NCBI GenBank assembly: GCA_963708135.1 | Contig: OY970192.1 | Span: 4,704,001-4,768,000, forward strand | Length of the DNA: 64,000 bases | From: an uncultured Gemmatimonadales bacterium | Lineage (GTDB): Bacteria; Gemmatimonadota; Gemmatimonadetes; Longimicrobiales; RSA9 | Direction of reading: 5' to 3' | Shown here: piece by piece, positions 13,526 to 16,882 of the stretch | Layout: each line of letters starts with the position of its first letter | Position numbering within the stretch: the first letter of the stretch is position 1 | Made by a program: the position numbers and the translations under genes | Notes under the pieces: generated by a model | Told to the model about the DNA's origin: nothing | Seen by the model: only the letters and a program-made list of their open reading frames with translations | Databases searched by the model: none

Positions 13526-13978
13526 TCACGGCAGCTCGCGGCGGATCTCCTCGGCGATCTCAGGCGTGATCGGCTGGCGGCCGGCAAAGCCGCCATCGAT
13601 CTCGTGCCAGAAGGCGACGCGCGACTCACCCAGCTTCCAGCACAGCAGGACCGGGCGGCCGCGGTAGAGGCTGTGGAAGTCGATCAGCCCTTCCTGGAAG
13701 TCCTTGACCACGCAACCCACCTGGTCGAGCTCCCGGAGATAGCCGTGCAGCCGCTCGGCGTAGGCGTCCACGGCGTCGCTCAGCGACTGCAGCTTCGAGC
13801 CGAGCGCCTCCCCCGTCGAGGCATCGAGCTGCCGGTAGAGCGAGCGCTTGCGCTGGAACTCCGGGTAGCCGTCCACGATGTCGCGCACGATGCGCGCGAC
13901 CAGCGGCAGCGTCCGGCTCGCCTCCTCGACCGTGAAGAAGCGCGGCTGGCGCGCGCCGCCCGAAGCCGGCTCGCTCAT
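13526..13978 (-). CDS. DUF2203 family protein
   Basis: FFTVEEA...LP, KD...GLIDF, LCWKLGE..V.FWH...GFAGR pattern. Confidence 0.85.
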   Translation of the reverse strand: MSEPASGGARQPRFFTVEEASRTLPLVARIVRDIVDGYPEFQRKRSLYRQLDASTGEALGSKLQSLSDAVDAYAERLHGYLRELDQVGCVVKDFQEGLIDFHSLYRGRPVLLCWKLGESRVAFWHEIDGGFAGRQPITPEIAEEIRRELP

Positions 13979-14634
13979 GCGTCGCCCTCGGCGAGCACCC
14001 ACTCGCAGCCGGCCGCGCCCCGGACCGCGCAGGCGCTGTGCAGCACCCGGGCGCGCGTGCCGGTGAACGCCGCCACCAGCTCCTCGAGTGCGCCGCCGTA
14101 CAGCACGCAGGCAGTGCCGCTCGGGTCGAGCGTCGTAGCCAGGGTTCCGCTCGCCTCCACGTGGAGTGGCCGCCCCGAGACCCGCACGGTCCCGCCGCCG
14201 GCGAGCCCGCGCAGCAGGCGGCCGGCGGAGCGGCGGATGTAGGCGAAGGAGAGCGCGCGCGGGAGCGAGGGCAGGACGCGCGCGAGGAAGCGGGGCGCCC
14301 GCGCCACGTGCTCGCGCGCAACGCGGTGGCCGGCGTCGCGCAGGATCGCCTCGGCGTCCGGCCGCCGGAGCACGAGCTGGATGAGGTTGGCCGCCTCGGC
14401 GCTCGGCACCCGCCGTCCGCGGCGGGCCGCGCGCTCGTAGTTGTGGATCTGCGACTCGACCACCCCGCTCAGCCCGAGGCGGCGGGGCAGACTGGCCGAC
14501 AGGTCCTCGTCCTCCAGGATCTCGCCCGGGCGGTCGTGTGCCCGCACCGAGAGGAGCAGGGACAGCGGGAGGAACGGCGTGACCGGCTCATCGGGGAGCG
14601 ATCCGCCTGTGACATCGTCGGTTGCCGCGCTCAC
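13975..14634 (-). CDS. Hypothetical protein with V4R-like C-terminus
   Basis: C....G.L and C...G...CE motifs; 4-bp overlap with the downstream gene. Confidence 0.55.
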   Translation of the reverse strand: MSAATDDVTGGSLPDEPVTPFLPLSLLLSVRAHDRPGEILEDEDLSASLPRRLGLSGVVESQIHNYERAARRGRRVPSAEAANLIQLVLRRPDAEAILRDAGHRVAREHVARAPRFLARVLPSLPRALSFAYIRRSAGRLLRGLAGGGTVRVSGRPLHVEASGTLATTLDPSGTACVLYGGALEELVAAFTGTRARVLHSACAVRGAAGCEWVLAEGDA

Positions 14635-14684
14635 TGGTGCACCTTACCCTCAGCGGGGCGTAGATTCGCGCCGCTCAAGAGAAG

Positions 14685-14865
14685 TGCTTCGGCGTCCGGG
14701 TAGGGAGAGCCAGCGTCGCTTGCCGCTCGACGGCCCGCATGAGACCCGCTCCCCTGCCCGGCGTGGAAGGCCCCAACCGACCACAGGGTGTAGCGCCACG
14801 GCACCTGAAGCCGAGAGCGCCTTTCAGTGAGCGATCGGTGAGACCTTCCAACGCCGGAGCGAGGG
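14685..14865 (+). ncRNA. Putative IS110 bridge/seek RNA
   Basis: Two stem-closed domains (14697-14760 and 14760-14855) carrying GCCGCTC (= left target+core), GCATGAG (= reverse complement of core+right target), CACAGGGTGT (= element right end) and TGAG (= reverse complement of core). RNA ends are approximate. Confidence 0.7.
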
Positions 14866-14891
14866 AGTGAATCTCTGCTCGGAGGTGAGGC

Positions 14892-16139
14892 GTGGAAGGA
14901 CTGGATCCAAGCTACCTCGTCGGAATTGACTGGGCCAGCGACAAGCATGACGTCTGTGTGCTCGATCTGAGCGGCGCCCTCGTTGACGCGTTCACCATCC
15001 CTCACACGGCCGGTGGGCTGAGTGAGCTGATCCGGCGCCTGCGTCGCGTCAGCTCTCCGGCGCAGCTGCCCATCGCCATCGAGCGGCCGTCCGGACTTCT
15101 GGTGGATACGTTGGTCGAGGCCGGCTTCCCGGTCGTTCCGATCCACCCGAACGCCCTCAAGGCCACCCGGCCCCGCTACGCCGCGGCTCCGGGGAAGAGC
15201 GATCCCGGTGATGCCTACATCCTCGCCGACGTCCTGCGTACCGATGGGCATCGATTCCGGCCGCTCCGGGTCCCCTCCGATCGCACCAAGGCGCTTCGCG
15301 CCGCCGTTCGCACCCGCGATGACCTGGTCGCGACCCGCGTCCAGCTCGCCAATCAGCTCCGCAGCCTGCTCGACAGCTTCTGGGCCGGCGCTGCCGCCAT
15401 TTTCGCCGATGTCGATAGCCCGATCGCCCTCGATTTCCTGGACGCCTACCCCACCCCGGAGAGCGCCGCCCGCCTCGGGCCCAAGCGCCTCGAACGATTC
15501 CTCAAGCGCACTGCCTACTGCGGCCGCCGGCCGGTCGATCAGCTCCTCGAGCGGCTCCGCTCCGCCCCCGCAGGGCAGGCCGCCGAGCTCGAGAGCGAGA
15601 CCAAAGGTCAGCTCGTCCGTTCCCTGGTCGCCGTCCTCCGCCCTCTCGTGGCTCAGATCCGCGAGCTCGACGGGCTCATCGCCGCTCACCTCGCGCAGCA
15701 TCCCGACGGTGAGATCCTGAAGTCCTTCCCCCGCACCGGCACCATCAATGCCGCCCAGATTCTCGCCGAGCTCGGCGACGACCGGCTCCGCTTCGCCACC
15801 GACGCCCAGCTCGCCGCCGAAGCCGGCGTCGCCCCCGTTACGCACAGCTCCGGCAAGCATCGCGGCGTCGCCTGCCGCTTCGCCTGCAACAAGCGCCTGC
15901 GACAAGCCCTCACCACCTGGGCGGACAACTCCCGCCATGCCCACCCCTGGGCCGCCGCCGTCTACAAGTGCGCCCGTGCCCGCGGCTGCGATCACCCGCA
16001 CGCAATCCGAATCCTCGCCCGAGCCTGGGTCCGCGTGCTGTGGCGCTGCTGGCACAATCGGTCCACCTACGACCCCTCCCGACATGGACGGGCTATCCCC
16101 TTCTTCACCCCCGCGGAACCCACCGCGGCGGCTGCTTGA
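14892..16139 (+). CDS. IS110 family DEDD transposase/recombinase
   Basis: GIDWA, IAIER and KSDPGDA DEDD residues; GVAP...SSG serine motif; N.RLR and R.LARAW; GGAGG before the GTG. Confidence 0.95.
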   Translation: MEGLDPSYLVGIDWASDKHDVCVLDLSGALVDAFTIPHTAGGLSELIRRLRRVSSPAQLPIAIERPSGLLVDTLVEAGFPVVPIHPNALKATRPRYAAAPGKSDPGDAYILADVLRTDGHRFRPLRVPSDRTKALRAAVRTRDDLVATRVQLANQLRSLLDSFWAGAAAIFADVDSPIALDFLDAYPTPESAARLGPKRLERFLKRTAYCGRRPVDQLLERLRSAPAGQAAELESETKGQLVRSLVAVLRPLVAQIRELDGLIAAHLAQHPDGEILKSFPRTGTINAAQILAELGDDRLRFATDAQLAAEAGVAPVTHSSGKHRGVACRFACNKRLRQALTTWADNSRHAHPWAAAVYKCARARGCDHPHAIRILARAWVRVLWRCWHNRSTYDPSRHGRAIPFFTPAEPTAAAA

Positions 16140-16323
16140 ACACAGGGGGGTTGACACAGGGTGTCTCATGCCGCCTCGTGAAGGAGCCACCGGTGCGCGG
16201 CTCAATCTTGCGGCGCGGCGGCCCGACTGGCAACGGGGCAGGGAGGCGGCACCCGGCCCGCTTCCTGCATTGTCAGGGGCCCGCTGACAGGAACGGCACC
16301 GCGCCCAGTCGGAGGACCCCCCA

Positions 16324-16770
16324 ATGGTGGATGAAACCTGCATCTTCTGCCGCATCATCGGCGGCGCGGAGATGGTGAGCATCGTGCACGAGGACAGCGA
16401 CGTGATCGCCTTCATGGACATCCAGCCCGCGAGCGTCGGCCACACCCTCGTGGTCACGAAGGACCACTACCCGACCCTCTTCGAGCTGCCGGACGACCTG
16501 GCCGCCCACTGCATCTCCACCGCCAAGTGGATCGGCGAGGCGATCAAGCGCGCCACCGGCGCCGACGCCGTCAACCTCTTCAGCGCCAACGGCCGCGCCG
16601 GCGGCCAGGACGTGCTCCACTTCCATCTGCACCTCATTCCCGTCCGTGAAGGCGACGACTTCGCCCTCCAGCTCCCGCTCGCCGACGCGCGCATCCCGTC
16701 GCGCTCCGAGCTCGACGTGACCGCCGCCCGCATCGGCCGGGCCGTCCAGGACCAGAGCGCGAAGGTCTGA
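16324..16770 (+). CDS. HIT family hydrolase
   Basis: CIFCRII, AFMDIQP..GHTLVV and HFHLHLIP histidine triad. Confidence 0.92.
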   Translation: MVDETCIFCRIIGGAEMVSIVHEDSDVIAFMDIQPASVGHTLVVTKDHYPTLFELPDDLAAHCISTAKWIGEAIKRATGADAVNLFSANGRAGGQDVLHFHLHLIPVREGDDFALQLPLADARIPSRSELDVTAARIGRAVQDQSAKV

Positions 16771-16882
16771 GGGCCGCCCCCCACGGGCCGGGGGGCGGGG
16801 AAGCCGCGGGACGCGCACCGGGCCGCGGCCGCTCCAGACGTTTTCCTTGCCTGACCTCCCGCGAGGCACCAACTTGCTGGCG

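Follow-up and report, generated by a model that had tools for sequence, protein, structure and literature searches.

Sequence evidence for a complete, probably active IS110-group insertion sequence with a bridge RNA of IS621-like plan

The window (the whole 64-kb stretch of DNA analysed; all coordinates are positions within it) contains a gene for an IS110-family recombinase, and the known system with which it invites comparison is IS621 of Escherichia coli with its bridge RNA (Durrant et al. 2024, PMC11208160; Hiraizumi et al. 2024, PMC11208158). Is this gene part of a complete element that carries such an RNA, and if so, where does the element end and which RNA segments match its target and its own termini? 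A preliminary description of the locus had proposed an intact IS110 element with an RNA of variant architecture. We place a probability of about 0.9 on the reading that the feature is a complete IS110-group insertion sequence whose bridge RNA has an IS621-like plan.

Extent, copies and recombinase

The genome (G+C 72%) holds four copies of the element with 100% identity across 1,531–1,561 nt. Their common sequence runs from 14629/14630 (GCTCACTGGTG...) to 16170, and the flanks beyond 14629 and 16170 are unrelated, so that the boundaries are established directly. The element spans 1,535 bp, from a core CT at 14630–14631 to the last right-end base at 16164, after which a second CT follows; the same short core thus stands at both junctions in place of a target duplication. 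The parts are as follows.

14630–14631, plus strand: left core copy, CT, placed by four copies with four different flanks and by the guides
14632–14891, plus strand: left end, 260 nt, non-coding on this strand and predicted to encode the bridge RNA
14892–16139, plus strand: IS110-family recombinase, 415 aa, with a GTG start 6 nt after GGAGG
16140–16164, plus strand: right end, 25 nt, with TTGACA (candidate −35) at 16151–16156, 8 nt from the end
16165–16166, plus strand: right core copy, CT, followed by the right target CATGC (string check, copies and relatives)

The left end had previously been placed at 14674. Since the four copies share 44 more bases leftward, 14634–14673 is internal to the element, as is the segment 14670–14676 that had been taken for left flank plus core and that supplies the 3′ arm of the RNA's 5′ stem-loop. 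Among related elements, contigs made of the element alone carry about 245–265 nt 5′ of the gene and 17–34 nt 3′ of it, which agrees with the 260-nt left and 25-nt right ends of the window copy. Throughout, we sampled 53 of 80 related loci plus the window (54 elements and sites); the remaining 27, being limited to <300 nt upstream or <60 nt downstream of the gene, entered no alignment or count.

The core is CT and not CTCA, as had been proposed. The dinucleotide CA after the core is frequent in the targets and left ends of the family and is absent from the targets of several relatives (L055, L062, L065). In three others (L078, L081, L082) the core has changed from CT to AT, and the left target, right target and right donor guides change jointly with the left junction, which fixes the position of the core. 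Of 41 inverted pairs, the 25 longest include none that connects one terminus with the other. A search of 30 relatives, all of other genera, gave no base-exact empty site, because the orthologous host gene and its HIT neighbour, present in five of them, have only 72–77% DNA identity.

The proposal of an intact IS110-family element is borne out by the recombinase. An in-frame TGA (14886–14888) directly precedes its start. The protein matches PF01548 (E = 2.4e-37) and PF02371 (E = 2e-17) and scores 204.7 bits against a cut-off of 140 for the NCBIfam model NF033542, 'IS110 family RNA-guided transposase'. Residues D13, E64, D104 and D107 (DEDD) and S320 do not vary among 25 relatives, and in alignment they fall on the catalytic positions of IS621, for which D102 and S241 are named as catalytic in PMC11208160 and PMC11208158; S320, in the ESGSS motif, aligns with the IS621 serine. 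A search of the PDB with the single sequence gave nothing at E ≤ 0.001, only an unrelated SusD chain at E = 1.4. A profile built from the 25 relatives matches the IS621 transposase 8wt6 (E = 3.2e-18) and, over the same domains, a transposase named ISCro4 from its PDB entry alone (9t56, E = 1.8e-17). As IS621 is out of reach of the single-sequence search, the recombinase is a distant relative for which a family profile is needed.

Structure and guides of the RNA

[quoted passage not shown] The fold was established from an alignment of 52 left-end sequences (47 distinct) from the sampled loci and the window. Across 36 proposed pairs, 92.5% of alignment cells are paired, compared with 74.5% after shuffling and 40–48% when the 3′ partners are slid; 30 of the 36 pairs show compensatory changes on both sides, and none of 500 shuffles reaches the observed value for any of five measures. 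The minimum-energy fold of 14650–14860 recovers the same helices (z = −3.1). An Rfam scan of 14000–16800 at E ≤ 1 returned no family.

14652–14675, plus strand: 5′ stem-loop with loop UAGAUU (minimum-energy fold), including the first GCCGCTC of the preliminary description
14697–14760, plus strand: target-binding loop module, outer stem 14697–14710/14748–14760 around an internal loop (helices 1 and 2)
14722–14734, plus strand: apical hairpin of the target-binding loop, GCCG CUCGA CGGC (helix 3)
14764–14850, plus strand: donor-binding loop module, with outer stem 14764–14770/14844–14850, inner stem 14777–14780/14835–14838 and an apical stem-loop at 14793–14820

Helices 1 and 2 comprise 13 pairs, 12 of them compensatory, with 85.9% and 95.7% of cells paired. 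Helix 3 (14722–14725/14731–14734) is 98.9% paired and compensatory in 3 of 4 pairs, and one relative (L013) carries a 9-nt insertion within the loop of this hairpin. In the donor module, helix 4 (the outer stem) is 91.8% paired, helix 5 is paired in every cell (100%) and compensatory in 3 of its 4 pairs, and helix 7 is poorly aligned (62%). Hairpins equivalent to the 5′ stem-loop, built of different letters, were read by eye in L007 and L010. The two stems and the two-loop RNA of the preliminary description, with loops that match the element's own ends and its insertion site, therefore stand, supported by both the minimum-energy fold and compensatory changes.

The guides were examined by permutation (1000 shuffles; 54 sites for the left target, 50 sites for the right target, 50 elements for the donor).

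14713–14720, plus strand: left target guide, GCGUCG plus core CU, reading like the left target's top strand (permutation test)
14737–14743, plus strand: right target guide, GCAUG plus AG, the reverse complement of core plus right target, CTCATGC
14744–14745, plus strand: AC, candidate target-loop handshake bases, which complement the GT that ends the right end (direct reading)
14782–14791, plus strand: left donor guide, CACAGGGUGU, identical in letters to the final 10 nt of the right end
14825–14831, plus strand: right donor guide, CAGUG plus AG, the reverse complement of core plus left end, CTCACTG (14630–14636)
14832–14833, plus strand: CG, candidate donor-loop handshake bases, which complement CG at target positions −2 and −1 (direct reading)

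Covariation of the internal loops with DNA is observed directly: the first loop covaries with the target and the second with the element ends, core included, the left donor guide being the exception. At left target positions −6 to −1 the guide matches in 0.41–0.98 of 54 sites (0.27–0.81 when shuffled), and these positions together with the first core position exceed the shuffles, at most 13 of 1000 reaching the observed values; clear cases are L062, L065, L066, L075 and L036. For right target positions +1 to +5 the match is 0.80–1.00 of 50 sites (0.43–0.96 when shuffled), reached by at most 10 of 1000 shuffles at +1 and by none at +2 to +5. The segment GCATGAG, already proposed as right target guide, is upheld by this covariation.

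The segment proposed as left target guide, GCCGCTC at 14722–14728, lies instead in the apical hairpin, which compensatory changes preserve, and it matches targets no better than shuffled pairings do (54 sites). On the two strands of the window together, GCCGCTC is found 76 times, where shuffles predict 55.7; because it is common in a genome of 72% G+C, a second copy 50 nt away is no evidence of guiding.

The left donor guide, given earlier as CACAGGGTGT, likewise holds: positions −9 to −2 match in 98–100% of 50 elements and covary with the element ends at −8, −7, −4 and −3 (0 of 1000 shuffles). The guide does not match position −1 (52%) or the core, which counts against a full likeness to IS621, whose left donor guide pairs through the first core base (PMC11208160, PMC11208158). 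The left donor match had been reported to stop short of the core. That impression came from the wrong left boundary, since the right donor guide, CAGTGAG at 14825–14831, is the exact reverse complement of CTCACTG at 14630–14636. In 51 of 54 elements an exact 7-nt complement of this guide is present 215–368 nt upstream of the gene, and the guide covaries with its partner (CACTG, CATTG, CATCA or CATTC, and TTACTG with the AT core). As left ends were located by that 7-mer, its permutation match is circular; support comes from the rate of 51/54, the consistent distance and the agreement with the boundary of the four copies.

By analogy with IS621, AC and CG are candidate handshake guides. The motif AGACC is nearly invariant, and GT closes the right end of every one of the 47 relatives in which that end was mapped; the segment 14737–14750 also forms an inverted repeat (I11, 86%) with 16158–16171. 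Target position −1 is G in 98% of 54 sites, and −2 matches in 72%.

With the left end and the left target guide corrected, the map has the IS621 layout, and the variant architecture with target guides 8 nt apart was an artefact of mis-mapping. In the published accounts of IS621, left guides read as the top strand and right guides as its complement (PMC11208160, PMC11208158), and the window element shares these orientation rules, the CT core and handshake bases after each right guide. The target loops have a common order of stem, left guide, stem-loop, right guide and handshake bases. Also in common are the DEDD RuvC-like domain, the Tnp domain with its serine, an RNA in a long left end, a candidate −35 in the right end with a candidate −10 in the left end, and the lack of terminal inverted repeats among the 25 pairs considered above. 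The window RNA differs in length (about 200 nt from a 260-nt left end, compared with 177 nt in IS621), in a left donor guide that pairs at −9 to −2 only and not at −1 or the core, and in a left target guide of 6+2 rather than 7+2 positions. Its targets appear to be start-codon contexts, whereas those described for IS621 are REP elements, and it carries an open antisense frame along the whole element. The RNA follows the published IS621 plan, and the NCBI family model already names such proteins RNA-guided transposases. The map offers a fully described natural guide set (target and donor guides, handshake bases, promoter parts) from a lineage far from IS621; backed by 47 distinct natural RNA variants, it could serve to start orthologue screening.

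Circle junction and choice of insertion site

Transcription, a circular intermediate, an RNA–protein complex and the chemistry of strand exchange are predicted here from sequence features of the element. Excision would yield a circle that places right-end TTGACA and left-end CACCTT, with an 18-nt spacer between them, together as a promoter, which would drive the bridge RNA. The junction of right and left ends would read ...GGGTGT-CT-CACTGG... (...GGGTGTCTCACTGG...). The DEDD/Ser recombinase together with the RNA would then recombine the circle junction with (GCGT)CG-CT-CATGC-type targets by strand exchange at CT.

14640–14645, plus strand: CACCTT, putative −10 box; the other strand reads AAGGTG

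The candidate −10 box is weak relative to the E. coli consensus. A (C/T)ACC(T/C)T hexamer is found in 40 of 51 left ends; over the 51, the second position is A in 50 and the sixth is T in 42. The candidate −35 box is TTGACA in 35 of 47 relatives, TGGACA in 11 and TCGACA in 1, at the same distance from the end. A scan of the integrated copy (14500–16300) for consensus promoters and terminators found none. We also considered TAGATT (14661–14666) as the −10 of an internal promoter and rejected it, because the conserved 5′ hairpin has it as its loop and no acceptable −35 accompanies it. In public RNA runs, one soil metatranscriptome shares a small part of the words of the element, in contigs that may derive from DNA carry-over or from a relative: a 176-nt contig, differing by 3 letters and 4 gaps, covers only 14716–14889, and a second contig, of the same possible origins, touches 15744–15778.

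The site in the window matches the right target guide at 5 of 5 positions and the left target guide at 4 of 6. The preliminary description had proposed checking whether other copies sit in similar targets. For the right half and core this is strictly so; the left guide matches the four occupied sites of the genome at only 4, 3, 2 and 1 of its six covarying positions. Better targets stand vacant, one of them a perfect 13-bp target, and the genome has two 14-mers with one mismatch and 51 with two, so that pairing of the left half does not predict where the element is located. Within this genome, then, the element keeps strictly to the right target half and to the two bases left of the core, and only loosely to the remaining left half.

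This pattern raises the possibility that the right target guide, the core and two handshake-complementary bases (CG-CT-CATGC) aim the element while the left guide adds little, which would make the element only half-programmable in nature. We consider this rather unlikely. It would account for occupied sites that share CG/TG-CT-CATG despite poor left pairing, and for the lower match at left target −6 to −2 (0.41–0.72) than at right target +1 to +5 (0.80–1.00) over 54 sites; a 2026 preprint also describes 'half-match' insertion by IS621. However, the left guide covaries with targets well beyond shuffles, L062, L065, L066 and L075 sit in sites with 6 of 6 left matches, and no part of the RNA varies more than the left guide region, as expected of a guide that is used and re-programmed. 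That natural sites follow the right target half far better than the left would, if confirmed, bear on the off-target rules of bridge recombinases.

It is very improbable that the elements are inert relics in which the RNA structure is ancestral baggage. The data checked give no direct sign of transcription or circles and some relatives have decayed (stops or frameshifts in 5 of 80 loci), but the four copies, at unrelated sites, show no difference across about 1.53 kb and retain an intact reading frame, the five catalytic residues and the promoter parts. The window element is an intact IS110-type element that, judged by these features, has recently moved and is probably active.

Virtually no weight remains on the original model of an element at 14674–16168 with a 4-bp CTCA core, closely spaced target guides and a truncated left donor guide, which the copy boundaries, the covariation of the apical hairpin and the lack of target covariation refute, along with the L013 loop insertion, the abundance of GCCGCTC and the targets lacking CA after the core, even though every quoted string is in place (GCCGCTC at 14670–14676 and 14722–14728, GCATGAG at 14737–14743, TGAG at 14828–14831, CACAGGGTGT at 14782–14791 and 16155–16164, CTCA at 14674–14677 and 16165–16168), CTCA flanks the span, GCCGCTC(A) at 14670–14677 repeats 14722–14728, and CA follows CT in most targets and left ends of the family.

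Interrupted gene and antisense frame

The insertion falls at the start of a host gene on the opposite strand, from which a frame runs antisense through the element.

13975–14634, minus strand: interrupted host gene, 219 aa, with a weak V4R match, whose original ATG now lies at the right junction
14631–16169, minus strand: antisense frame open across the whole element, 512 codons from the displaced host ATG (16169–16167) to a TGA (14633–14631)

An element-derived GTG (14634–14632) replaces the host ATG in frame and overlaps the antisense TGA. Orthologues of the host gene in the five relatives start at about the same place and adjoin the divergent HIT gene. Insertion in the family may favour translation starts: ATG, GTG or TTG stands at the junction in 43 of 48 sites, with a Shine-Dalgarno-like motif upstream in 16 of 46 (13–14% in controls), and the four sites in the window genome comprise three gene starts and one position inside a gene. 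The right target guide is kept as ...(A/G/T)TGAG in 37 of 47 distinct RNAs, which places the cut two bases after an opposite-strand start codon.

In relatives, the antisense frame is open to within 8 nt of the left terminus in 39 of 45 elements and to within 12 nt in 42. Within the left end it is stop-free in 43 of 46, compared with 0–18 of 46 for the other five frames. A Pfam search with the 512-aa antisense product found no family, and left-end variability, used to gauge whether the frame encodes a selected protein, has no codon-position periodicity (mean entropies 0.91, 0.80 and 0.88; p = 0.56). As a control, 165 of 399 gene-like frames of 380–480 codons in the genome lack the three codons that read as stops on the opposite strand, so that an open antisense frame across the recombinase gene is by itself unremarkable.

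Tentatively, at somewhat under even odds, we suggest that this widespread clade may be built to occupy the start codon of a gene without silencing it. The host ribosome-binding site and ATG would open a stop-free frame, some 500 codons long, that crosses right end, recombinase gene and RNA-coding left end in antisense. This frame would end in a TGA formed by the core T and CA and overlapping the regenerated ATG or GTG (RTGA), which the element's AAGGTG would precede at 5 nt; with this overlap and AAGGTG, ribosomes could terminate and then re-initiate on the interrupted gene. If this is true, the bridge-RNA region would be under a second, translational constraint that allows no stops and indels only in threes. 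Confirmation would show that a bridge-RNA gene is able to carry a reading-frame constraint, and the antisense frame with its stop–start overlap would tie the 1997 'hed' idea from IS900 to RNA-coded target choice. The paper cited for the hed open reading frame is reportedly that of Doran et al. 1997.

IS900, an IS110-family element of Mycobacterium avium subsp. paratuberculosis, was the only precedent found for an antisense frame or for translation-start targeting in IS110 elements among the papers searched. According to PMC8141618, its hed frame spans the whole element on the opposite strand without a ribosome-binding site or start codon of its own, as the window frame does; its target motif, CATG N6 TCTCCTT, holds an opposite-strand start codon and ribosome-binding site; and its insertions are rarely inside coding sequences. 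IS900 is described there as sitting between the ribosome-binding site and the start codon, whereas in the window the cut lies two bases past the ATG and the insertion restores a start codon overlapping the antisense stop; the likeness drawn here is one of organisation.

The IS1111-type elements with their seekRNAs, as presented by Siddiquee et al. 2024 (PMC11187229), share with the window element a DEDD transposase and a target-selecting RNA from a non-coding region, and form a promoter-creating circle of the kind predicted here. They differ from it in having the non-coding region downstream of the gene, a reversed order of strand matches and subterminal inverted repeats. The RNA of the window element lies upstream of the gene, which assigns it to the IS110 type and not to IS1111.

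Element boundaries, copies and recombinase

Judged by its sequence, the element is an intact, recently active insertion sequence of the canonical bridge-RNA kind. The genome holding the window, a single contig (5.45 Mb, 72% G+C), carries four copies at 100% identity. In an alignment that includes the flanks, all four agree from 14629/14630 (GCTCACTGGTGCACC...) to 16170 (...GGGTGTCTCATG) and differ beyond these points; the target sites are tgccgCGCTCATGCcgc, gagctCGCTCATGCggg, gtgcgCGCTCATGGctc and catcgTGCTCATGGgcc. The preliminary description had correctly recognized an IS110 element with a bridge RNA, and every string it quoted is present where it was placed. Because the copies share sequence from 14629/14630, the left end it proposed (14674) falls 44 nt inside the element, and the GCCGCTC at 14670-14676 that it read as left flank plus core is internal. 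GCCGCTC occurs 76 times in the window, so a second copy 50 nt away is uninformative.

The element encodes a recombinase:
14892-16139 (+), 415-aa protein with both Pfam domains of IS110 transposases (PF01548, E = 2.4e-37; PF02371, E = 2e-17)

The protein scores 204.7 bits against NCBIfam NF033542 ("IS110 family RNA-guided transposase"; cut-off 140). A single-sequence search of solved structures gave no match for the recombinase; a profile built from 25 relatives retrieved 8wt6, the transposase of IS621 (E = 3.2e-18), and 9t56, that of ISCro4 (E = 1.8e-17). Residues D13, E64, D104, D107 and S320 are invariant across the 25 relatives; the first four align with the DEDD residues of IS621 and S320 with the ESGSS-motif serine of that enzyme. 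The IS621 reports name D102 and S241 as catalytic (PMC11208160, PMC11208158). Elsewhere in the genome, 36 nt at locus L005 (G000:C1:2058224-2058259) match the recombinase gene at 86% and are possibly another IS110-family element or remnant.

A scan with one genome per species yielded 141 confirmed relatives, and 80 loci were kept, at 54-89% amino-acid identity and from several phyla. In five of the 80 (L038, L039, L042, L043, L078) the recombinase match contains a stop codon or its length is not divisible by three; these are decayed copies amid otherwise intact relatives. Alignments comprised the window plus the 53 loci in which the gene is preceded by 300 nt or more and followed by 60 nt or more (52 distinct upstream sequences); the remaining 27 were left out. 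Relatives on short, element-only contigs have 245-265 nt before the gene and 17-34 nt after it, which fits the 260-nt left end and 25-nt right end in the window.

In a sub-clade of three Actinomycetota records (L078, L081, L082) the core CT is changed to AT jointly in the left target, right target and right donor guides and at the left junction; the core is therefore two bases. At all three loci the left junction has AT whereas the right one has GT, and the guide U opposite core position 1 could pair with A or G.

Bridge RNA, guides and target choice

The predicted helices and guides are as follows, with guide matches given as observed and shuffled ranges.
14697-14710/14748-14760, target-loop outer stem
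14713-14720, left target guide (left target -6 to -1; observed 0.41-0.98, shuffled 0.27-0.81)
14722-14725/14731-14734, target-loop apical hairpin (98.9% paired)
14737-14743, right target guide (right target +1 to +5; observed 0.80-1.00, shuffled 0.43-0.96)
14764-14770/14844-14850, donor-loop outer stem
14777-14780/14835-14838, donor-loop inner stem
14782-14791, left donor guide (donor -9 to -2; observed 0.98-1.00; covaries at -8, -7, -4 and -3)
14793-14796/14817-14820, donor-loop apical stem, plus a poorly aligned tip
14825-14831, right donor guide

On the alignment of 14694-14858 with relatives, the 36 proposed pairs are formed in 92.5% of cells compared with 74.5% in column shuffles; shifting the 3′ partners by 1-3 columns gives 40-48%. 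In 30 of the 36 pairs both partners have changed, and none of 500 shuffles reaches any of these measures. The minimum-energy fold of 14650-14860 (z = -3.1) contains the same helices plus a 5′ hairpin at 14652-14675. This layout follows the plan described for IS621: a 5′ stem-loop and two internal-loop stem-loops, each with stem, left guide, stem-loop and right guide (PMC11208160, PMC11208158). No Rfam family matched in the element region.

To locate left ends, an exact complement to the 7 nt aligned with 14825-14831 was sought (found in 51/54 elements); right ends were located by the 10 nt aligned with 14782-14791, allowing at most two mismatches (47/54). Guide letters were compared with DNA letters against 1000 re-pairings, with the three other own-genome copies added. 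The observed match was reached by at most 10 of the 1000 shuffles for the right target guide and at most 13 for the left target guide, which matches at 6/6 positions in L062, L065, L066 and L075. The left donor guide leaves -1 (0.52) and the core unmatched. The match figure for the right donor guide is circular by construction, as the 7-mer itself located the left ends; this predicted guide is backed by the hit rate, the constant distance, the four-copy boundary and covariation of its variable letters (end/guide CACTG/CAGTG, CATTG/CAATG, CATCA/TGATG, CATTC/GAATG).

The left target guide proposed in the preliminary description (14722-14728) matches targets no better than shuffled pairings and lies inside the 98.9%-paired hairpin, whose loop carries a 9-nt insertion in L013. 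Two of the four guides were identified correctly in that description; the unusual features it reported arose from the misplaced left boundary and from a hairpin taken for a guide.

The AC at 14744-14745, directly 3′ of the right target guide, is complementary to the invariant GT ending the right end, and the CG at 14832-14833, directly 3′ of the right donor guide, to the CG preceding the core in most targets. In IS621, each right guide is followed by two bases that pair with the other DNA once strands have been exchanged (PMC11208160, PMC11208158); AC and CG are candidate handshake bases in the corresponding places. Inverted repeat I11 (14737-14750 with 16158-16171, 86%) is this AC/GT complementarity, and the right donor guide complement seemingly runs into the left flank because handshake bases follow the guide.

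At the four occupied sites of its own genome the left target guide matches 4, 3, 2 and 1 of 6 positions, the right half matches 4-5 of 5 and CG/TG-CT is obeyed. The whole contig also contains unoccupied matches to the two target guides: one that is perfect over 13 bp, and 14-mers with a single mismatch (two sites) or two mismatches (51 sites). Agreement with the left guide does not predict which sites are occupied; the pattern is compatible with, and no test of, the "half-match" insertion that a 2026 preprint reports for IS621.

Two relatives have two left-end starts (L072, 110 nt apart; L028, 20 nt apart), one copy being inserted within the left end of another. In L072 the sequence flanking on the left is the target-loop hairpin of a second copy, which suggests that the stretch coding for the right target guide can in turn be a target, on the other strand.

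Candidate circle-junction promoter

All 47 elements carry TTGACA (35), TGGACA (11) or TCGACA (1) at a distance of 8 nt from the right end. When the ends are joined, (C/T)ACC(T/C)T follows 18 nt beyond this box, with A at position 2 in 50/51 and T at position 6 in 42/51. We infer that a circle junction would join the two into a promoter; a transcript beginning roughly 7 nt further downstream would have its first base where the 5′ hairpin begins. A scan of the integrated copy found no consensus promoter. Public RNA data touching the element comprise two metatranscriptome contigs with no bearing on expression. A 176-nt soil metatranscriptome contig (95-99% alike) covers 14716-14889, in the RNA-coding left end alone, leaving the gene uncovered; it may represent RNA of a relative or carried-over DNA.

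Insertion at start codons and the antisense frame

ATG, GTG or TTG is found at the junction in 43/48 sites, and such a start codon is specified by 37 of the 47 distinct right target guides. A Shine-Dalgarno-like motif lies upstream in 16/46 sites versus 13-14% in controls (p about 1e-4). Three of the four own-genome copies sit exactly on gene start codons, and the fourth is inside a gene:
16165-16171, window's copy, start of a V4R-like gene
own-genome copy, start of an RnfD/NqrB-family gene (match begins at profile position 2)
own-genome copy, start of an amidase gene

In L078, L081 and L082 the host ATG is the core AT plus the next base, and the element therefore parts the ribosome-binding site from the start codon.

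On the minus strand the window's copy occupies a gene's start codon, and before insertion the site read ...GAGGCGGC-ATG-AGC-GCG... on that strand. The host ATG, now at the right junction (16169-16167), opens a 512-codon antisense frame (14631-16169, minus strand) through the whole element to a TGA at 14633-14631. This TGA overlaps a GTG (14634-14632) supplied by the left end, with AAGGTG 5 nt upstream, and the gene frame is restored (GTG-AGC-GCG). In the window and among relatives L007-L083, a regenerated GTG or ATG overlaps the antisense TGA at the left terminus.

Among 45 relatives with both ends mapped, the antisense frame stays open up to the last 8 nt before the left terminus in 39 and up to the last 12 nt in L018, L019 and L077 (42/45 in all); the exceptions are L038 (a decayed copy), L059 and L066. 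Of the distinct end lengths, 19 of 21 on the left (215-368 nt) leave a remainder of 2 when divided by three, and 5 of 6 on the right a remainder of 1. The frame that continues the gene's antisense codons contains no stop in 43 of 46 distinct left ends (4 stops in total), compared with 18, 4, 2, 0 and 16 for the other five frames (49-116 stops). The gene part alone is unremarkable, as 41% of comparable genes in the genome have an open codon-aligned antisense frame. The antisense product matches no Pfam family and the left end has no codon periodicity, so selection, if any, would act on openness of the frame rather than on protein sequence.

The closest precedent is IS900, for which one report describes a "hed" ORF on the complementary strand, spanning the whole element without start signals of its own, and a target motif CATG N6 TCTCCTT (PMC8141618). 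Literature searches on antisense frames or start-codon targeting in IS110 elements gave nothing beyond IS900.

The neighbouring genes of the window's copy are:
13529-14634 (-), V4R-like gene, then a DUF2203 gene
16324-16770 (+), divergent HIT-family gene

The same divergent gene pair is present in five relatives of the same family.
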